DNA of 64,000 nt from an uncultured bacterium (GTDB lineage Bacteria; Bacillota_I; Bacilli_A; RFN20; CAG-826): NCBI GenBank assembly GCA_949299335.1, contig CASGAD010000014.1, forward strand, positions 66,330 through 130,329. The letters run 5' to 3'. Below are positions 691-55,402 of this stretch, one piece after another (within the stretch, counting starts at the first letter, position 1; each line of letters opens with the position of its first letter). The notes beneath the pieces are model-generated. The model was given only the letters and a program-made list of their open reading frames with translations. It was not told where the DNA came from and did no database searches. Both the position numbers and the translations under genes were made by a program.

Positions 691-1134
691 ATGCCAAAAT
701 GTAAGTATTGTCATGAAAATATAACTAGATTTGATAAAGAAATTTGTCCTTTTTGTGGTGGCAAAAAGCCTTTAGAAGGAGTTGATGATTCAACTTATGA
801 TATCACTCAATTTGTTGACATCATGAAAGAGAACAATAAAGAAATAAAATTCAAGCAAAAGAAAAGAGTCACTAATGGATTATTATGTATGTTTTTAGGC
901 TTTTTTGGGGCCGATGCTTTTTATTTAGGCTTTAAAAAACTAGGAATTTTACGTTTATTGATTAATTTAATAATATACGCTGCAGCAAGTTTAATTTTAT
1001 TTTTCCTTACCGAGTTAAGTTTTTATTCATTTATTATCCCATTTGGGGCATTATTTGTTATTTATTTTATAATTGGAATAATTAATTTATTTATCAGAGG
1101 CAAAAAGGACGTTAACGGAGTATTTATTAGATAA
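691..1134 (+). CDS. Zinc-ribbon / TM2-domain membrane protein
   Basis: N-terminal CxxC...CxxC (CKYC..CPFC), then the TM2-like motif LGFFGADAFYLG and two hydrophobic helices. Confidence 0.7.
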   Translation: MPKCKYCHENITRFDKEICPFCGGKKPLEGVDDSTYDITQFVDIMKENNKEIKFKQKKRVTNGLLCMFLGFFGADAFYLGFKKLGILRLLINLIIYAAASLILFFLTELSFYSFIIPFGALFVIYFIIGIINLFIRGKKDVNGVFIR

Positions 1135-4295: not shown

Positions 4296-5273
4296 ATGAA
4301 TTTAGGTTTTTTAGGTTGTTCTAAAATCGGAATAAAAATTATTGAGGCACTAAAATCAATTCCTGAAGTGGTTTTATATGGTTGTAGTGCGCAAGATTCT
4401 ATTAGAGCAAAAGAATATAAAGAAAAATATGGTTTTCTTAAAAGCTACGAATCATATGAAGAAATGTTAAACGATCCTAATATTGAATTAGTTTATGTTT
4501 CTACATTAATGAGTACTCACTATAAAGATGTTTTGATGTGTCTAAAGCATAATAAAAGTGTAATAGTAGAAAAAGCTTTTACAATGAATGCCAAAGAAGC
4601 AGATGAGCTATGTTATTATAGTGAAAAACATAATATTTATCTTGGTGAAGCTATTTGGACTAGATATATGCCTAGTAAAGCTATTATTAATAAACTTATT
4701 AAAGATGGCGTTATAGGGGAAGTTTATCATGTTGACGCTAATTTATCATATTCTTTAAAAAATGTTAAAAGATTGACCACTAAAGAGCTTGGTGGAGGTA
4801 TTTTACTTGATGTAGGAGTTTACCCTATTAACTTTTTAACAATGTTTTTTGGCTATGATTTTAAACTTATTAATAGCGTTATGGTCATGAACAAGGAATT
4901 TAATGTTGATGAAAGTGTAATGATAAATGTAGTCTATAAAAACGGATTGACGGCCTCTTTATTTGCTTCAATGAACGGAGTTACTTCTAAAAAAGGAATT
5001 ATTTATGGAAGTAAAGGTTATTTAGAAATTGATGATATAAATAATCCTCATAAGGTTTCTATTTTCGATACATTCAATAAAAGATCACCTGAACTTAGTA
5101 AAGTAATTGAATTTGAAAAGCAGGTGAATGGTTATGAATATGAATTTATAGAAACAATTGAAAATGTTAAAAATCATCAAATTGAGCCAAATTCAATGCT
5201 TCATAGTGAAACATTAAAAATTATGAAAATCATTGATGAAATCAATGAAAAATCGATAAAAGTATATAAGTAG
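4296..5273 (+). CDS. Gfo/Idh/MocA-family NAD(P)-dependent oxidoreductase
   Basis: N-terminal Rossmann pattern LGFLGCSKIG, EKA(F) motif VIVEKAF, typical length of about 325 aa. Confidence 0.8.
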   Translation: MNLGFLGCSKIGIKIIEALKSIPEVVLYGCSAQDSIRAKEYKEKYGFLKSYESYEEMLNDPNIELVYVSTLMSTHYKDVLMCLKHNKSVIVEKAFTMNAKEADELCYYSEKHNIYLGEAIWTRYMPSKAIINKLIKDGVIGEVYHVDANLSYSLKNVKRLTTKELGGGILLDVGVYPINFLTMFFGYDFKLINSVMVMNKEFNVDESVMINVVYKNGLTASLFASMNGVTSKKGIIYGSKGYLEIDDINNPHKVSIFDTFNKRSPELSKVIEFEKQVNGYEYEFIETIENVKNHQIEPNSMLHSETLKIMKIIDEINEKSIKVYK

Positions 5274-5308
5274 TTATTTTATAGTAATTAATTAGTATTA
5301 AATTAGTA
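5260..5308 (+). repeat. Phased TAGTA array 1 (period 11 bp), fills the gap between the oxidoreductase gene and deoC
   Basis: Perfect TAGTA at 5282, 5293 and 5304. Degenerate AAGTA at 5260 and TAGTT at 5271; the latter contains the TAG stop. Confidence 0.7.
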
Positions 5309-5322
5309 GTTAGGAGGAAAAT

Positions 5323-5958
5323 ATGAACTACAATAAATATATTGATAACACTCTTTTAAGAGCTGATGCTACATTAGCTGAGATTAAAGGTTTATGTGAA
5401 GAAAGCATTAAGTATGATTTTAAGTCCTGCTGCATTAATCCAGCTTATATAAAGGCAACAAAAGAATTTTTAAAAGGAAGCAATGTCTTAGTTTGCACAG
5501 TCATCGGATTCCCACTTGGTAGCATGACTACTGAAGCAAAAGTTTTTGAAACTAAAGATGCTTTAGAAAAAGGCGCCGATGAAATTGATATGGTCATTAA
5601 TGTTAGTAGATTAAAAGATCATGATGATGATTATGTCTATAACGAAATAAAAGCTATCAAAGAAGTTTGTGGAAAGCATATTTTAAAAGTAATTATCGAA
5701 ACTTGCTTATTAACCGATGAAGAAAAAGTTAGAGTTTGCAAATTAGCTAAAAAAGCAGGTGCTGATTTTGTTAAAACAAGTACTGGCTTCTCAAAATGGG
5801 GAGCAAAAGCAGAAGATGTTAAATTAATGAGAGAAACTGTTGGTCCAGATATGGGTGTTAAGGCTTCTGGTGGAGTCAGAACACACGAAGAAATGATGGA
5901 AATGATCGAAGCTGGAGCAACAAGAATTGGAACAAGTAAAGGTTCCGCATTAATGTAA
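5323..5958 (+). CDS. deoC: Deoxyribose-phosphate aldolase
   Basis: Motifs IDMVIN and FVKTSTGF (Schiff-base Lys) and KASGGVR. Strong SD AGGAGG. Confidence 0.92.
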
Positions 5959-6047
5959 TTATCCAAAAATAAAAAAACTATTGCTTAGCAATATTAATTT
6001 CTGTAAAATTAATAACGTTCGAATTCGAGAATGGAGGTGAAAAAAAG

Positions 6048-6221
6048 ATGTCTAAGGTAGTAATTAGAGAAGGTGAATCTCTCGATGAAGCATTACGTAG
6101 ATTTAAAAGACAAGTCAACAAGGCTGGTACCATTCAAGAATGCAGAAGAAGAGAATGCTTTTTAAAGAAAAATCTTAAGAGAAAATTAAAAAGCGAAAAC
6201 GCTCGTAAAAAATACAGATAG
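6048..6221 (+). CDS. rpsU: 30S ribosomal protein S21 (not in the ORF track, 57 aa)
   Basis: Hand translation gives [66 protein letters not shown] upstream. Confidence 0.9.
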
Positions 6222-6223
6222 TC

Positions 6224-6252
6224 AAAAATCCACTCGATAGGGTGGATTTTTT
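6224..6252 (+). terminator. Rho-independent terminator after rpsU
   Basis: Stem AAAAATCCAC (6224-6233) pairs with GTGGATTTTT (6242-6251), running into a T tract. Confidence 0.75.
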
Positions 6253-6299
6253 TGTTAAAAACTTATTTTTAACCTTGTTGTACTACTAAGGAGGTAAAA

Positions 6300-7490
6300 A
6301 TGAGTTATTTTATTAAACAAATTGGATTGAAAGATTGTTCCTTTGCTTGTGTAAAGATGCTTTTAGCAATGGTATATAAAAATAAAAAGTTTTTATATTA
6401 TCCTCAAATTAAAAAAGATGAATCATATTCGCTTTTAGATATTATAAAAATCGCTAAAAATGAAGGAGTTGAACTAAAAGGATATAAATATGTAACTAAA
6501 GAAAGTTTCTTCGTTCAAAAAAGATTCCCAATTTTAGTGGTACTAAAAGAAAACAATCTTTTGCATATGGTATTAGTTAAGAAAATTAAGTGTAAGAGAG
6601 TTTTAATTTATGATCCTAAAATAGGTATATATGAGTTAAAAAAAGATAAATTCCTAGAATTATGGAATAGTGAGATATTAGAGATCGAATCAATAGGTTC
6701 TTCTAATTATAAGGAGAGTTATTCATCGCCAGTACCTTTAAAAAATAAGATTATATCGTACTTTTTACAAGTTATTAGTCTATTAACTATTTTAGGTGCA
6801 ATGTTTTTCTCGAATGAAACTTATAGTTTTTATATACCATTATTGCTTTTAGTAGCTTTTGCTATTTCTGAATTTGCTTATAAAAGAGTATTAATTAGTT
6901 CTATGAAAGCTTTTGACAATCGTATTATCGAGCGTGTATTTGACGAAAAAAGAAAAGTTTTTAAAGACAAATACATTGAAATGAATAAATTTAAAACATT
7001 ATTACTTGGTAGACCAATTCAATTAATCAACTCGATAATTGTTTTAGTGGTTGGGCTAATTATTTTATCACTAAATAGTTATTTAAATCTTATTAACATT
7101 ACTTTAGTAATATCTTTGAGCATTATTCTAGAAGTTATTCAATATAAATATTTTTTAAATAGGGATGATATTAAAGTAAAGGAAAATGAGTTATTTGAAG
7201 CAGATTCATCGATTGATTACCAAAAGTCTTTAGCATTACTTCAAAATAAAGTTTATAAGCGAGTAACTTTTATTAGTTATAAAAAGTATTTAATTACTTT
7301 TTTAATTGGAGTGATTTGTCTAGTTTATGCCGCCTTTAGTGATGAGATAAGTTTGAATTTTATATTATTTCATGCGTTTATATATTCTTATATAAATGAA
7401 AATGCTACAAACATTTTAAAAATTTACTTTGAAACACCTGATTATAAGTATTCTAAGTGTTTATATAAGTATTATTGTGATGAAATTTAA
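6300..7490 (+). CDS. Peptidase-C39-domain membrane protein (like a bacteriocin-processing ABC exporter but without an ATPase domain)
   Basis: N-terminal 125 aa fit C39: Gln7, Cys13 (KDCSFAC), His89 (LLHMVLV), Asp105 (IYDP). About six hydrophobic helices follow. No Walker A/B or ABC signature. Strong SD AAGGAGG. Confidence 0.65.
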   Translation: MSYFIKQIGLKDCSFACVKMLLAMVYKNKKFLYYPQIKKDESYSLLDIIKIAKNEGVELKGYKYVTKESFFVQKRFPILVVLKENNLLHMVLVKKIKCKRVLIYDPKIGIYELKKDKFLELWNSEILEIESIGSSNYKESYSSPVPLKNKIISYFLQVISLLTILGAMFFSNETYSFYIPLLLLVAFAISEFAYKRVLISSMKAFDNRIIERVFDEKRKVFKDKYIEMNKFKTLLLGRPIQLINSIIVLVVGLIILSLNSYLNLINITLVISLSIILEVIQYKYFLNRDDIKVKENELFEADSSIDYQKSLALLQNKVYKRVTFISYKKYLITFLIGVICLVYAAFSDEISLNFILFHAFIYSYINENATNILKIYFETPDYKYSKCLYKYYCDEI

Positions 7491-7539
7491 GTCATTAAGT
7501 GTAGAATAAATCAAAAATATTCTTTCTAATATTGTTTCA

Positions 7540-7548
7540 TGCTAAAAT
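7540..7548 (+). promoter_or_regulatory. Extended -10 (TGcTAAAAT) placed for a leaderless ybeY transcript
   Basis: TGCTAAAAT ends at 7548 and the ATG is at 7555, the same 7-nt spacing as at 4289/4296. No SD. Confidence 0.4.
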
Positions 7549-7554
7549 AAATGC

Positions 7555-8004
7555 ATGAATTTAGATTTTAATAGCGAAATATCACAAGATGTAAGTGAAT
7601 TCGAACCTTTATATAATAGGTTATTAGAAAAAACATTAGTCATGTTAAATAAGTCAACTAATTGTTTAATGAGCGTTACTTTCGTTAATAAAGAGCAAAT
7701 TCATGAAATCAATAAGATTTATCGAAATATTGATAGGCCTACTGATGTTATAAGTTTTGCTTTTTTGGATGACGAAAACGAGAAAAATATTAAAGGAGAC
7801 TTTCCATTAGATTTAGGTGAAATTTACATTTGTTATGAAGTAGCAGATGAAAACCGTAAATCTTACGGCAATAGTTTAAAAAGAGAATTAGCTTTCCTTT
7901 TCGTCCATGGACTATTACATTTGCTTGGATATGATCATATGACTAAAGAAGACGAAGAGGTCATGTTTCCTCTTCAAGAAAAGATATTAGAAGGAGAACT
8001 TTAA
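7555..8004 (+). CDS. ybeY: rRNA maturation endoribonuclease YbeY
   Basis: Metal-binding motif HGLLHLLGYDH. About 150 aa. Confidence 0.92.
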   Translation: MNLDFNSEISQDVSEFEPLYNRLLEKTLVMLNKSTNCLMSVTFVNKEQIHEINKIYRNIDRPTDVISFAFLDDENEKNIKGDFPLDLGEIYICYEVADENRKSYGNSLKRELAFLFVHGLLHLLGYDHMTKEDEEVMFPLQEKILEGEL

Positions 8005-8006
8005 TA

Positions 8007-8408
8007 ATGATTAGTAAAGAAGAATTAGTATTAAAAGCGATTGAAGCTAGAGAAAATGCCTATACTCCATATTCGAAGTTTGCTGTTGGAGCTGCTTTAT
8101 TAACAACAAGTGGAGAAGTTTATTTAGGATGTAACATCGAAAACGCTTCGTATGGATTATGTATGTGTGCTGAAAGAAACGCTCTTTATAACGCTTATTG
8201 TCACGGAGTTTCTCAAGATGATATCGAAGCTTTAGCAATTGTCGCAGATACAGATGAACCAGTTTCACCTTGTGGAGCATGTAGACAAGTTATTAGTGAA
8301 TTATTCCCGAAAGATGCCCCTATTTATTTAGCTAATTTAAATGGCGATATAAAAGAAACTTGTATTGAAGAACTTTTACCATACGCCTTTGAAAGTAGTG
8401 ATTTATAG
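8007..8408 (+). CDS. cdd: Cytidine deaminase
   Basis: CAERNA and PCGACRQ zinc-binding motifs. 133 aa. Confidence 0.92.
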   Translation: MISKEELVLKAIEARENAYTPYSKFAVGAALLTTSGEVYLGCNIENASYGLCMCAERNALYNAYCHGVSQDDIEALAIVADTDEPVSPCGACRQVISELFPKDAPIYLANLNGDIKETCIEELLPYAFESSDL

Positions 8409-8409
8409 T

Positions 8410-9282
8410 ATGAAGAGTGGATTTGTCTGTTTAGTTGGTCGTTCCAATGTCGGAAAATCAACTATTTTGAATCGTATTATCGGAAAAAAGGTTTCAATCG
8501 TTTCTCCTAAATCTCAAACCACAAGAAATTCTATTCAAGGAATTTATAATGATGAAGATTCTCAAATAATTTTCGTTGATACTCCAGGAATTCATAAACC
8601 TAAGAATGCTTTAGGCGAAACAATGGATAAAATTTCATATTCTTCAATTAGAGATTGCGATTTAGCTATTTTTGTTGTGGATGCTAGTAAGCCTTTTAAT
8701 GAAGGTGACCAATATCTTTTTGATCATTTAAAATTTGATTGCAATGTAATAATTGTTTTAAACAAAATTGATGAAACTAATGTTGAATTAGTAAATGACT
8801 TAAAAAATAGATATGTTGAGCAATATCATCCAGTAGAAGTTGTACAGACTTGTGCTTTTGATGGTTTTGGTATTAAAGATTTAATAGGAGCAATTAAAAA
8901 GAACCTTGATGAAGGTCCTCAATATTATGATGTATCTACAACAACCAATAGAGATTTAGCCTTTAGAATTCAAGAAATTATAAGAGAAAAAATGCTAACT
9001 TTATTAAGAGAAGAAGTTCCTCATTCATCAACAGTTGTATGCGAAAAAATTGATGATGAAGAGTATCCATTAACAATATACGCTAAAATAATCGTTGAAA
9101 AAGATAGTCAAAAAGGAATAGTAATTGGTTCTAGAGGAATAATGATTCGTAAGATTGGAACATATGCTAGACAAGATATTGAAGCTATGCTAGGAAAACA
9201 TATAAATTTACAATTAAACGTACAAGTAGTAGAAAACTGGAGAAATTCTAGTAGATTTTTAGTAAGAAATGGCTTTAATTAA
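8410..9282 (+). CDS. era: GTPase Era
   Basis: G1 motif GRSNVGKST, DTPG, NKID, C-terminal KH domain. Start chosen at ATG 8410 (MKSGFV), 1 nt after the cdd stop, rather than 8365. Confidence 0.92.
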   Translation: MKSGFVCLVGRSNVGKSTILNRIIGKKVSIVSPKSQTTRNSIQGIYNDEDSQIIFVDTPGIHKPKNALGETMDKISYSSIRDCDLAIFVVDASKPFNEGDQYLFDHLKFDCNVIIVLNKIDETNVELVNDLKNRYVEQYHPVEVVQTCAFDGFGIKDLIGAIKKNLDEGPQYYDVSTTTNRDLAFRIQEIIREKMLTLLREEVPHSSTVVCEKIDDEEYPLTIYAKIIVEKDSQKGIVIGSRGIMIRKIGTYARQDIEAMLGKHINLQLNVQVVENWRNSSRFLVRNGFN

Positions 9283-9284
9283 TA

Positions 9285-10007
9285 ATGGAATTAATTAATG
9301 GTATTGTTGTTTCACTATCAAAATATAGAGACAATGATGCAATAATAAATGTTTTAACTCCTAATGATCTTGTCCCTATTATTATTAGAGGAGCATATTC
9401 AAAAGGTAGTAAGTATTTGCAATATGCAAAAACTTTTTATAGTGGCGAATTTGAAACCTATAAAGGACAAACAAAATATTTAAAGCTTAGAGCAGTTAAA
9501 ATAGATGAAGATTTTAATCTTCTATTTAGTGATTATAAATCTTTAATGTGCTTAGAATTAATTAAAGAACTATTTACAAAGGCTTTTTCTAGTGATTCAG
9601 TTTCAAATTTTTATCTACTTTTAAAAGTGACATTAAAAAATATTAAAGAAACGCATGAGACTCTTAAATACACTTTATTATTCGTTGCTTATTTTTTAAG
9701 AATTTCAGGCTACTCTGTAGTAGTTAATGAGTGTTCGAGTTGCCATAAAGCTGGGAAATTTGAATATTTTTCTTTTTCTAATGGTGGGTTTATTTGCAAT
9801 GAATGCAAAAATGAAAATGATATTAAACTAAATGAACAAGAAAAATGTATACTTGTAAGCTTATTTACCTATCGATATAGTGAAAATGCTAAAAATATCG
9901 ATGCTAACGATGAAATTTATTTAGGATTACTTAACATTTTGTGTGAATTTATAACGTTTTATAACAATATTAAAATTATTTCGTTAGAATTATTAAAAAT
10001 ACACTGA
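9285..10007 (+). CDS. recO: DNA repair protein RecO
   Basis: OB-fold N-terminus and Zn motif CSSC..CNEC. Position after era as in Firmicutes. Confidence 0.85.
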   Translation: MELINGIVVSLSKYRDNDAIINVLTPNDLVPIIIRGAYSKGSKYLQYAKTFYSGEFETYKGQTKYLKLRAVKIDEDFNLLFSDYKSLMCLELIKELFTKAFSSDSVSNFYLLLKVTLKNIKETHETLKYTLLFVAYFLRISGYSVVVNECSSCHKAGKFEYFSFSNGGFICNECKNENDIKLNEQEKCILVSLFTYRYSENAKNIDANDEIYLGLLNILCEFITFYNNIKIISLELLKIH

Positions 10008-48585: not shown

Positions 48586-51495
48586 TTAGTCATTAATTCC
48601 GCTAAATACAGCTTCTTCTGGGCCTTCTTCACTAGCAACTACTTTATTTTTCTTCTTTGTATCTTTCTTTTTAATAGTCATTTTGCCTTTTAACTTAGCA
48701 AATTCTTTAGTAAAGATTATTTCTAATGGCAATTGTAATGATTTAACAAATATACAAAGTAGTATCATACCTAAAAGGATAAGTCCTAAAGTATATTGAT
48801 CAAATGCTGTTGAGAAGAAGAATGAGATAACTGCGAAAGCTGAAAGTGCTGTGGCAACAAGAATATAACTATAGTTAATATTTGTAACATAATTATATTC
48901 TGTTTCTCTAACATCTAATTCAAACAATCTATGTTTATTTTCTTTATAATAAAGTTTTTCGGCTGAGTAATAAATATCAAGCATAATGTAGCCTAAGATA
49001 CTTAATAATAATAAGCCTAAGCTAATTTCACTAGTGAATGGCCCTCTAATTAATGAGAAGATACCAGCAACACTAGTCAAGGTTGCTCCAACTATAATAA
49101 CTCCACTTAAAGCTTTTGATGGGCCATATCTTAATAAGAAGTAAATTAAGGTTGCACCTAAAGATATTGCGCAAGCTATTAATACGTAAAGATTAATGTT
49201 ATCATCTCTAACGTCATAGACTTTTTCAATAGAAACAATATAGTTTGTGCCTAAATTTGCCTTTTCTTGAATAGCTACACTAATTGCTTCTTCAGCTGTT
49301 AAGGCATTATCATATCCTTCAACATAATAAATACCTTCGTTAGATTCTGTGTCAATTATTGTGTTTAAATCAACATAGAAATAAACTTCTCTATTGGTGA
49401 TAATGGAACTTGAGCTTTCACTAAAGTTGTAATCATAATAGAAATAATCGACTGTAAGCTTATTTTTGAATGCCTTTGTAGTTAAATCTTTATCAGTATA
49501 AATGTTATCAAAGGCATTTTGAACTTTAATTGAGTTAGCTGCAATATCATATTTTGCATTACTATTTTTAATGTTATATGTAATGACTGCTCTTGAATCT
49601 AATTCATTAGAGCCAGCATTATAAATATTGCCATTAATCGATTGGAAAGTAATTAATCCAACAATGCTTGCTAATGTTAAGACACTAGTAACAATACCAA
49701 CAATTTTAAATGTTGACTTAGGAGTTTTCTTTTTAAATGATTCAAGATAAGAAGATTTAACATCTTTACTTAAATCAGCGGTAACTTTTGTATCAATTGC
49801 AAATTGCTTGATATGATTTTGAGCATAAGCTGAGTTATATAAGAACCAACTTACACCTCTAAAGGCAACTATATTAATAACAATTGTGAAAGCACTGCCT
49901 AATAAAGTTATTGCACCAAATGCAGAAATAACTGAACTTGGAATTAAGTAACAAGTTAATCCAATAATTGCACCTATTGCTGAGAAGCCAATAATATTCA
50001 TTGAAGTCTTTTTATTAGCTTCTTGATATGCTTTTTTAAGAGATTTACCTGCGTAAATTTCTGTTTTTGCTTTTGATAACCATATAGATACACCAAATGT
50101 TGCAATCAAACTTACACTAAGTAAGCCTAAAATGGTACCAATATTGAATTCATTACCTAAAACATTAAATACACTTAAACTTGAAATTATACTGCCTAAA
50201 ACAGTAATAATGCCTATAATTCCAGCTGTACCATAGTTAACTAACAAGAATAATGAACAAATTATAACTGCTACTAATGTAGAAATTAAAACTGTAGATT
50301 CTAAATTAACTGTGCCTGCTCTTTTAATATATTCGATGAATGGAGAAACAATATTTGTTCCATCACTTACTTCGGATTGATTGATTAAAGTAATTTCATA
50401 ACGTAAATTTGAAGAATTTAATTCGTTACAGAATAATGTTGCTTTTTTATATGCCAATCTATCATCTTCTTCAATTGTGTTATAGATTTTATAACTAGTT
50501 GTAACATCAATTGGCTTATCACCATCATTAATTGCGCCTAAATTGTAGTATTGGAAGTAAACTTCATCATAAACTTCAGCTTTTTGATCTTCTTCACTTA
50601 AAGTTGAATCATAATTCCAATAGAAACTTGCTGGATTTGATAAATCAAAGAATGTAACAACATAATCTGATAAATTGGAGTCATCAATATTTTTATCATC
50701 ATTTGATAACATATCGCTTAAGTCTAATCCTGATAACCAGTTATTGACAACGAATAAGACTTTACTTTTATCAAGTTTAGTAACTTCTTCGGCTTCAGAA
50801 TCATCGCCTGTAGTATCATCTGTTGTTGTTGATTCATCAGTCGTAACTGTTGAGTCATCAGCTTTTTGAACATTTTCTTTAAATCCAAACTTATTGTAAT
50901 TTGCACTTGAAGTTGAAGAATCTGTGCTTGAAGACATTTCGTCAACAGTAGATTTGAAGTCTTCTGGATTAGTTAATGTTACTACTACATAAGGATAACC
51001 ATTTAAATATTCTACTCTAGCGCTATTTTCAACAAATACTGGCTCAACAGTTGTATCACCAGCTAATACTTGAGTAGCATCTCTACCCATGTTATAAGTT
51101 TCTTCATAGTCCTTAATCATGATAGAGTTACTGAAAGTTAAATAATTAATAACATCATCATAATCGTTTAATGTATCTTTGAAGGTTAAACTCAAAGTAT
51201 CATCCCCGATTGTTTCAAGCTTATATTCACTAATTTCTGCACTATCTAATCTAGATTTAAATTCTTCTGTAACTTCTTCTAAGTAAGTCACATCAGGATC
51301 TAAACTTGTTGCAGGATTTTCAGTTCCGCTTGAGAAGTCATTGTTTGTCTTTCTTTCAGAAATTTTGAAAACAAAATTTCTAGATGTTGAGTAATCACTA
51401 TTTCCGTTTGTTGATAGAATAGTAGGAACTACTCCAACCAACACTGCAGTGAATAATGACGCACACATCGAAATATAACCTATAAATCTCTTCAT
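48586..51495 (-). CDS. secDF: Protein translocase subunit SecDF (fused), with an expanded extracytoplasmic domain
   Basis: Two 6-TM SecD/SecF modules. 969 aa. SD AAGAGG. Confidence 0.85.
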   Translation of the reverse strand: MKRFIGYISMCASLFTAVLVGVVPTILSTNGNSDYSTSRNFVFKISERKTNNDFSSGTENPATSLDPDVTYLEEVTEEFKSRLDSAEISEYKLETIGDDTLSLTFKDTLNDYDDVINYLTFSNSIMIKDYEETYNMGRDATQVLAGDTTVEPVFVENSARVEYLNGYPYVVVTLTNPEDFKSTVDEMSSSTDSSTSSANYNKFGFKENVQKADDSTVTTDESTTTDDTTGDDSEAEEVTKLDKSKVLFVVNNWLSGLDLSDMLSNDDKNIDDSNLSDYVVTFFDLSNPASFYWNYDSTLSEEDQKAEVYDEVYFQYYNLGAINDGDKPIDVTTSYKIYNTIEEDDRLAYKKATLFCNELNSSNLRYEITLINQSEVSDGTNIVSPFIEYIKRAGTVNLESTVLISTLVAVIICSLFLLVNYGTAGIIGIITVLGSIISSLSVFNVLGNEFNIGTILGLLSVSLIATFGVSIWLSKAKTEIYAGKSLKKAYQEANKKTSMNIIGFSAIGAIIGLTCYLIPSSVISAFGAITLLGSAFTIVINIVAFRGVSWFLYNSAYAQNHIKQFAIDTKVTADLSKDVKSSYLESFKKKTPKSTFKIVGIVTSVLTLASIVGLITFQSINGNIYNAGSNELDSRAVITYNIKNSNAKYDIAANSIKVQNAFDNIYTDKDLTTKAFKNKLTVDYFYYDYNFSESSSSIITNREVYFYVDLNTIIDTESNEGIYYVEGYDNALTAEEAISVAIQEKANLGTNYIVSIEKVYDVRDDNINLYVLIACAISLGATLIYFLLRYGPSKALSGVIIVGATLTSVAGIFSLIRGPFTSEISLGLLLLSILGYIMLDIYYSAEKLYYKENKHRLFELDVRETEYNYVTNINYSYILVATALSAFAVISFFFSTAFDQYTLGLILLGMILLCIFVKSLQLPLEIIFTKEFAKLKGKMTIKKKDTKKKNKVVASEEGPEEAVFSGIND

Positions 51496-54785: not shown

Positions 54786-55091
54786 CTACCATTTAGAAAC
54801 CTTTAAATACTTTGAATAAGAAGCTTCTATTGTTTTTAATTGGATGAGCATGACTTTAATAACAATTTGATTTTCATGTTCTTTAAGGCCTTCTCCTTCA
54901 GCAAGAATATAACCTTTTTCGACCTTAACATAGATATTTTTGTCAATATTTAAGGCGTTTATGCCACCAACTCCAATAGCGCTAACAGCACTACACACAA
55001 TATCTTTTCCACTTTCGTCGTAATTAGCATGTCCGGAAATTTCAAGTTTTGAAATAATCCCGTTATTTTCTAAATAGTTAACTTCAATCAT
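54786..55091 (-). CDS. prp: Ribosomal-processing cysteine protease Prp (YsxB)
   Basis: SGHA...VCSAVS motif. Lies between rplU and rpmA. Start at ATG 55091, overlapping the rplU stop. Confidence 0.88.
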   Translation of the reverse strand: MIEVNYLENNGIISKLEISGHANYDESGKDIVCSAVSAIGVGGINALNIDKNIYVKVEKGYILAEGEGLKEHENQIVIKVMLIQLKTIEASYSKYLKVSKW

Positions 55092-55402
55092 TATTTTAAA
55101 TTGATGCTTGTAATTGTTAAGCAAGTATATGGTTGTCTATGACCAATTGATCTACGATAATTTGATTTAGCTTTATACTTGAATACGTGAATCTTTCTAC
55201 CTAAACCTTGCTTTTCAACTTTAGCGACTACTGTAGCTCCAGCAATTGTTGGAGTACCTGTGGTAATCTTTTTATCGCCGACTAATAATACATCATTAAA
55301 GGTGTAGTCTTTGCCAACTTCTACATCTAATTTTTCGACATAAATTTTTTGGCCAACTTCGACTTTAAATTGTTTACCGCCTGTTAAAATTATAGCGTAC
55401 AT
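55091..55402 (-). CDS. rplU: 50S ribosomal protein L21
   Basis: [14 protein letters not shown] start. 103 aa. Confidence 0.95.

Follow-up and report, generated by a model that had tools for sequence, protein, structure and literature searches.

A PCAT-like peptidase and exporter membrane domain without the ATPase, encoded in the ybeY gene string of uncultured low-GC Bacilli

The DNA analysed here (the window) is a stretch of 64,000 nucleotides from an uncultured bacterium of the Bacilli (GTDB lineage Bacillota_I; Bacilli_A; RFN20; CAG-826), corresponding to positions 66,330 to 130,329 of the forward strand of contig CASGAD010000014.1 (assembly GCA_949299335.1). Between rpsU and ybeY it carries a gene for a protein of 396 amino acids (aa), in which an N-terminal C39 peptidase domain is joined to a six-helix transmembrane domain (TMD). 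The architecture is that of a peptidase-containing ATP-binding cassette (ABC) transporter (PCAT) minus its nucleotide-binding domain (NBD), and both the architecture and the reality of the gene are near certain. The protein fails the defining test for a PCAT, the presence of an NBD, yet by sequence comparison its descent from PCATs is clear. With moderate confidence, it is interpreted as an active, membrane-anchored and ATPase-independent leader peptidase derived from a PCAT, a composite statement of which the substrate class and the independence from ATP are the uncertain parts.

The N-terminal domain exceeded the curated threshold for peptidase family C39 (Pfam PF03412 / MEROPS C39) with 65.5 bits against a gathering score of 22, covering profile positions 3-129 of 133 (coordinates and E-values in Table 1). 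The four catalytic residues named in an earlier note on this DNA, made from the sequence alone, were found at the proposed positions (Gln7, Cys13, His89 and Asp105), align with the C39 profile and follow the canonical order of oxyanion Gln, Cys, His and orienting Asp. The PCAT-typical motifs around them (DCG.A, H.V.V and DP..G) are also retained. In an alignment of 155 full-length family members, with a median identity of 26% to the window protein, these residues were conserved at 97, 98, 99 and 99%, respectively; Cys13 was kept in 152 members, the remaining three having gaps at that column, and His89 and Asp105 in 154 each. Judged from this alignment, the Gln/Cys/His/Asp set is under strong purifying selection. 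An AlphaFold2 model of the protein (predicted local distance difference test 83.7, predicted template-modelling score 0.73) reproduced the papain-like double-glycine peptidase fold, with Foldseek matches to LahT150 (6mpz), ComA (3k8u/5xe8) and the peptidase domain of PCAT1 (7n87) at target template-modelling scores (TMt) of 0.67-0.79, the LahT150 and ComA peptidase domains giving 0.73-0.79.

The earlier description of about six hydrophobic helices following the peptidase domain held, with segments at residues ~150-171, 176-196, 239-259, 264-284, 329-349 and 353-373, and could be refined to a shortened form of the type IV exporter TMD of PCATs. In an hhalign comparison of a 73-member family alignment (A2) with one built from six full-length PCATs, a probability of 99.7 and E = 1.4e-26 were obtained over 392 columns, family columns 12-406 mapping to PCAT columns 4-455 of 703, that is, to the peptidase and the whole six-helix TMD. 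Against the Protein Data Bank, the family profile found PCAT1 (4ry2 and related entries; E = 1.2e-11), a single alignment that continues from the peptidase into the membrane domain placing query residues 5-301 on PCAT1 16-349. The family is about 57 columns shorter than the PCATs over the aligned span, and the largest gaps fall in two intracellular loops, the elements that in ABC exporters carry the NBD-coupling helices. The best Foldseek matches of the complete model were inward-facing, substrate- or ADP-bound PCAT1 structures (6v9z, 8vp5 and 4ry2; E ~1e-13 to 1e-10, query template-modelling score (TMq) 0.57-0.61), the substrate-bound entries 6v9z and 8vp5 giving E ~1e-13 to 1e-12 and TMq 0.59-0.61; similarity to ATP-bound or occluded PCAT1 states was lower. 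On these comparisons the membrane domain is homologous to the PCAT TMD (a type IV ABC exporter) over its whole length and stops short of the NBD, the C-terminus of the protein lying about 23 residues past TM6, at the point where a PCAT would enter its NBD.

The three outer loops consist of 3-4 residues each and contain no Lys or Arg, while 11, 8 and 4 such residues are found in the inner loops and tail. Because this pattern obeys the positive-inside rule, the C39 domain is placed in the cytoplasm, as in PCATs. Outside the peptidase domain only D206, K232, N259 and E295 reach at least 94% conservation among the 155 members, and three of these four most conserved non-catalytic residues (D206, K232 and E295) lie in cytoplasmic loops. 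Semi-conserved carboxylates are present near the inner ends of the helices (E191 in TM2, 76% acidic; position 277 in TM4, 43%; E367 in TM6, 54%) and are compatible, if weakly, with proton coupling or the binding of cationic cargo.

On the 396-aa protein there was no match at E<=1 to Pfam ABC_tran (PF00005) or to Pfam ABC_membrane (PF00664), and the Walker A/B and LSGGQ motifs of an NBD are absent. A regular-expression scan of all six frames of the window detected no open reading frame (ORF) combining a Walker A motif with an LSGGQ-type signature. The stop codon (7488-7490) is separated from the ybeY start at 7555 by only 64 bp, and therefore there is no room for a frameshifted NBD. The protein thus ends at 396 aa with no NBD encoded in cis or next to it, as had been claimed earlier, and the accompanying statement that no accessory, immunity or bacteriocin gene is nearby was likewise correct, the neighbours being housekeeping genes. 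Apart from the C39-TMD gene the gene content of the window is purely housekeeping, and an adjacent ABC ATPase, accessory gene or small leader-bearing ORF was found at none of the related loci examined. No family among the PADLOC models for anti-phage defence was matched at E<=0.01.

A profile search run exhaustively over 1.84 billion representative sequences (clusters at 50% identity) returned 1343 proteins at E<=1e-3, of which 277 reached E<=1e-30. Nearly all of the 150 top-scoring matches were 386-422 aa long, aligned end to end and had the same NBD-less architecture, and a word-seeded search gave 16 clusters, almost all of 396-414 aa. In a second profile search, family members were recovered at E<=1e-54 and full-length PCATs (PF03412 + PF00664 + PF00005, ~700 aa) only at E>=1e-11; so sharp a step in score sets the family apart from true PCATs as a discrete group. 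No model in Pfam, NCBIfam or PADLOC covers the full-length protein, the annotation of members goes no further than 'hypothetical protein' or 'C39 domain-containing protein', and in the absence of a dedicated Pfam or NCBIfam model the family is invisible to functional annotation. No description of an NBD-less C39-TMD (PCAT-like) family was found in the literature. The named sources are all metagenome-assembled genomes (MAGs) ('uncultured Bacilli bacterium', 'uncultured Mollicutes bacterium' and a roe-deer omasum 'Bacilli bacterium'), and further sources are an activated-sludge metagenome contig and a 'Coprobacillus sp.' MAG in which the gene is annotated 'cysteine peptidase family C39 domain-containing protein'. 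One locus with full Bacilli-type synteny (L011, CAVKAB010000048.1; dnaJ...rpsU, then the C39-TMD gene) is filed under 'Bacteroidaceae bacterium', probably as the result of a binning error.

A product identical to the 396 aa of the window protein is recorded for 11 contigs, which makes the intact allele the majority form, and two disrupted alleles were observed in conspecific assemblies at 99.3% nucleotide identity. The nonsense allele K374* (AAA to TAA) gives a product of 373 aa (P0001) that lacks the 23-residue cytoplasmic tail; a miscalled start was rejected as an explanation of P0001, which begins at the identical ATG and in which the nonsense change K374* is genuine. In the frameshift allele (loci L046/L048) an A7 run within the C39 coding region is read as A8; over window positions 6222-7560 this extra A is the sole difference in L046, where gene calling gives two pieces, of 116 and 229 aa. 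The frameshift allele may be a homopolymer assembly error, while the nonsense change is a substitution seen repeatedly. On one metagenome contig (L042, 953-1129) only the first ~58 codons of the gene are present (51% identity) after deoC/rpsU, followed by unrelated genes, and this represents a remnant or a chimeric contig.

Genomic context was compared across ~45 related loci, collected by looking up identical proteins and from one scan each of genomes and metagenomes, with a 17-sequence alignment as seed for the related-locus scan. Of the 35 loci whose DNA extends past the 3' end of the gene, 33 have ybeY in the next position, usually at a spacing of 15-96 bp; three of these ybeY genes were missed by BLAST and confirmed through the motif HGxxHLxGY[DN]H. 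Beyond ybeY the order continues with cdd, era, recO, glyS and dnaG. Upstream, rpsU was found in ~21 loci and dnaJ in ~15, one or the other being present in most of ~40 loci, and the whole dnaJ...rpoD block is collinear in the related loci. The only clear exception is a clade (L003/L004) in which the gene lies between tilS (on the opposite strand) and ileS-lspA-rluD. Among the 16 loci with complete genes, mean pairwise identity was 29% for this protein, 74% for GlyRS, 57% for Era and 34% for RecO, and its pairwise identities correlated with those of GlyRS (Spearman 0.64, reached by 0 of 2000 permutations) as strongly as did those of Era. Since divergence tracks GlyRS, the pattern fits an old, vertically inherited and fast-evolving gene and not a recent insertion. 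By these sequence comparisons, the gene appears to be a vertically inherited member of the ybeY-cdd-era-recO string in an uncultured low-GC lineage of Bacilli. The earlier note had described it as inserted in a conserved rpsU-ybeY slot; Pfam confirmed both flanking genes and hence the position, but not a local insertion, the gene being old and lineage-wide and its constant neighbour being ybeY, not rpsU. In Bacillus subtilis the corresponding place is taken up by the phoH/pgpH segment.

Table 1. Features of the C39-TMD gene, its product and its immediate flanks (window coordinates)
Feature	Position	Strand	Basis or remark
NBD-less PCAT-like protein, coding sequence (396 aa + stop)	6300..7490	+	ORF list; ATG start
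Shine-Dalgarno sequence AAGGAGG	6288..6294	+	5 nt 5' of ATG at 6300, read from sequence
rpsU (ribosomal protein S21), upstream neighbour	6048..6221	+	Pfam Ribosomal_S21 E=2.9e-17
Terminator-like hairpin and U-run, 3' of rpsU	6224..6251	+	RNA fold -15.1 kcal/mol
Peptidase C39 domain, residues 3-130	6306..6689	+	Pfam PF03412 E=5.4e-18
Catalytic codons	Gln7 6318-6320; Cys13 6336-6338; His89 6564-6566; Asp105 6612-6614	+	
A7 homopolymer within C39 coding region	6638..6644	+	A8 = frameshift in one conspecific assembly (1 contig)
Six-helix membrane domain, residues 150-373	6747..7418	+	hhalign, Protein Data Bank profile match, Foldseek, hydropathy
Predicted cytoplasmic C-terminal tail, residues 374-396, continuing TM6 helix	7419..7487	+	AlphaFold2 helix 352-394; hhalign end point
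Nonsense allele K374* (AAA to TAA)	A->T at 7419	+	locus L054; 3 contigs
ybeY, near-constant downstream neighbour	7555..8004	+	Pfam YbeY E=3.2e-43
cdd, era, recO, rest of conserved downstream string	8007..10007	+	Pfam for cdd; BLASTP synteny and Pfam lists of related loci

The gene begins 78 bp downstream of rpsU and has, as noted earlier, a strong Shine-Dalgarno sequence of its own (Table 1). The hairpin 3' of rpsU had a z-score of -4.95, with none of 200 shuffles equally stable, and was not listed by a simple terminator scan; a simple promoter scan of the interval between rpsU and the C39-TMD gene detected nothing convincing. G+C content is ~21-37% over the first 16 kb of the window and ~25% across the gene, and an Rfam scan of the whole window gave no matches. 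Downstream, cdd (8007-8408) is separate from ybeY in the window; in one clade the two are fused into a single 282-aa ORF with YbeY and dCMP_cyt_deam domains (L001 11214-12062; also L002, L009 and L010). The mechanically called era ORF (8365-9282, plus strand) begins at a TTG overlapping cdd, while in related gene calls era has 290 aa, matching the ATG at 8410 (MKSGFVCLVGRSNVGKS...).

Several further genes in this material were recorded. A GFO/IDH/MocA oxidoreductase gene lies between rpmF and deoC in the window (4296-5273, plus strand), is split into two ORFs in L007 (7985-8931) and is missing from this place in L001, L006 and L012. The gene string is rigid apart from this insertion, which is either variable or decaying. 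A 147-aa protein (691-1134, plus strand) with an N-terminal CxxC...CxxC zinc ribbon and a weak TM2 match (27.8 bits, cut-off 27.9) is conserved behind dnaJ in almost every related locus in which the rsmE-mtaB block is retained, in the slot that prmA occupies in Bacillus. Between recJ and ruvB, the minus strand (48586-51495) encodes a 969-aa multi-pass protein with large Ser/Thr/Asp-rich extracellular regions and no Pfam match at E<=0.01, which, judged by its position, may be a very divergent SecDF; in many Firmicutes secDF lies in the recJ-ruvB interval. The minus-strand region 54786-55402 contains rplU (L21) and the gene of the cysteine protease Prp (54786-55124), presumably followed by L27, so that the known ribosomal-protein-processing protease of Firmicutes is encoded apart from the C39 protein. 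In L003, a predicted 1252-aa lipoprotein (4956-8714; lipobox LSSC, no Pfam match) is encoded two genes upstream of the C39-TMD gene and carries a Sec/lipoprotein signal, not a double-glycine leader.

Of the three functions proposed in the earlier note, the stand-alone membrane leader peptidase is the best supported, the use of a borrowed ATPase is disfavoured, and a domesticated remnant, in the sense of a decaying gene, was rejected by the conservation data. As a stand-alone leader peptidase, the protein would have arisen from a PCAT ancestor that lost its NBD cleanly and kept the C39 peptidase and a shortened six-helix TMD. By analogy with PCAT1 it is probably a dimer, in which the peptidase would dock at the entrance that the inward-open membrane domain offers on its cytoplasmic side. 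There it would remove a double-glycine-type leader from the N-terminus of one or several substrates whose genes lie in other parts of the genome, and the protein itself would hydrolyse no ATP. After cleavage, the mature product could be freed into or through the membrane by way of the TMD, passively or on an ion gradient, or be passed to another pathway. Without an NBD there would be no ATP-driven alternating access, so that the product would be either released elsewhere or into the bilayer, or would pass in a passive or gradient-driven manner, the gradient-driven option having one experimental precedent in an engineered NBD-less MsbA (PMC4979069). A bolder version, in which the ABC-exporter membrane domain has become ATP-free and the protein, besides cleaving the leader, gives the mature peptide or small protein passage across or into the membrane, by means of an ion gradient or of facilitated release, as a core housekeeping function of this uncultured Bacilli lineage, is considered unlikely, though far from absurd.

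Four observations weigh against an ATPase-independent leader peptidase. No ORF with a double-glycine leader was found in the window or in loci L001-L016, using a strict and a relaxed pattern; the matches obtained were chance-like only, inside housekeeping or membrane proteins, and the leader was absent from the N-termini of the Pfam-less conserved neighbours that were checked (the zinc-ribbon/TM2 protein, a 272-aa ORF at 1795-2613 and the 1252-aa lipoprotein of L003). Besides the intact allele (11 contigs), the species has the nonsense allele (3 contigs) and the frameshift allele (1 contig), and such disruption within a species indicates that the full-length protein is not strictly indispensable. 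The membrane domain evolves fast, with a mean pairwise identity in the family of 21%, relative to 34% for the peptidase domain. Finally, the conserved cytoplasmic-loop residues D206, K232 and E295 might mark an interface with an unlinked partner, possibly an ATPase.

These loop residues are also what speaks for a split ABC transporter, in which the present protein is the peptidase and membrane half and the ATPase a separate polypeptide with an unlinked gene: although shortened, the intracellular loops are still there, and their conserved D206, K232 and E295 resemble a protein-protein interface. Nevertheless, no ABC_tran gene is adjacent in any of the ~40 loci examined or present in the window, the largest gaps relative to PCATs are in the very loops that couple to the NBD, the protein ends right after TM6, and the known bacterial type IV exporters have the NBD fused to the TMD. 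A split transporter is thus quite improbable. That the gene should instead belong to ribosome or RNA maturation together with ybeY and era, for example in the processing or membrane tethering of a ribosome-associated factor, is suggested by the persistence of ybeY as the next gene even for members down to 22-30% identity, and by the gaps of often only 15-50 bp, which suggest co-transcription with ybeY. However, vertical inheritance within so stable a string would by itself preserve the gene order, the entire dnaJ...rpoD block being collinear. In one clade the gene has a different place, between tilS and ileS-lspA; Prp, the protease for the ribosomal protein L27, is separately present; and in other bacteria unrelated membrane proteins are encoded in this operon, in Bacillus for example PgpH and DgkA. 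A ribosomal role is consequently rated very unlikely.

The peptidase fold could also serve for binding only, the protein being a cleavage-independent scaffold, receptor or chaperone comparable to the C39-like domains (CLDs) of HlyB-type transporters. Protease-inactive C39-like domains are known in type 1 secretion ABC transporters (PMC6363468), and no substrate was identified among the ORFs scanned in the window and in L001-L016. CLDs lack the catalytic Cys, though, whereas Cys13, His89 and Asp105 are each kept in nearly all members of the present family (counts above), and a binding-only role is held to be highly improbable. Hardly credible at all is the reading of the gene as an error of sequencing or assembly, or as a normal PCAT gene decaying into a pseudogene, for which only the minority alleles K374* and the +1 frameshift in the A7 run could be cited: the exact product occurs on 11 contigs, the frameshift in a homopolymer may itself be an assembly error, and hundreds of diverged homologues keep both length and catalytic tetrad. 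Truncation of a full-length PCAT, which the earlier note had recognised as one of the findings that would undo its proposal, was rejected on the same grounds, namely the 64 bp to ybeY, the 11 contigs, and the constant length and architecture of the best 150 matches.

PCATs are the textbook case of leader cleavage coupled to ATP-driven export. Here, a large natural family has kept the peptidase and the exporter TMD in the absence of the ATPase, and is inherited in a housekeeping operon and not in a bacteriocin locus. This raises the question of what a type IV ABC membrane domain does alone, addressed so far via laboratory truncations only, and of which conserved cellular substrate needs double-glycine-type processing in genome-reduced, uncultured Bacilli of gut, rumen and digester. 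Were the ATP-free reading true, the family would constitute a new class of secretion device, and the counterpart in nature of the NBD-less MsbA, which is engineered and debated.

Among known systems, the closest are the PCATs, also classed as ABC transporter maturation and secretion (AMS) proteins, represented by PCAT1 of Clostridium (Acetivibrio) thermocellum, ComA, LahT, LcnC and CvaB. They share with the window protein a cytoplasmic C39 domain with Gln/Cys/His/Asp and a six-helix type IV TMD in the same order. They differ in possessing an NBD, the window protein having none and a shorter aligned region, and in being encoded in bacteriocin or quorum-sensing loci with cargo genes, whereas the window gene lies in a housekeeping string without adjacent cargo, accessory or immunity gene. 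The best NCBIfam match was the Mbov_0121 family peptidase ABC transporter of mycoplasmas (NF045998; E=8.4e-15, residues 6-227, comprising the peptidase and the first TM helices, onto profile positions 1-234), for which no functional data were found in the literature. With 54 bits against a cut-off of 500, and a 673-position model that includes an NBD, the window protein is not a member of that family. FapD (NF058616) and FilB (NF050078) likewise have the C39 fold unfused to an ATPase, and were matched far below threshold (35 bits against a cut-off of 330, and 33 against 475, respectively); both are single-domain proteins, either soluble or secreted, that lack a six-helix exporter domain.

In HlyB-type transporters the same fold stands at the N-terminus of a type IV exporter (Foldseek match to HlyB, 7sgr, E=3e-8). 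In type 1 secretion ABC transporters the CLDs have no catalytic activity and the NBD is present (PMC6363468), the reverse of the window family, which retains the catalytic set including Cys13 and has no NBD. The membrane part on its own finds its nearest likeness in MsbA-MD, the engineered NBD-less MsbA, which is also a type IV membrane domain without NBD and for which pH-gradient-dependent transport of ethidium and chloramphenicol was reported (PMC4979069). MsbA-MD is a laboratory truncation, and the window protein belongs to a natural, conserved family in which a peptidase is added to the membrane domain.

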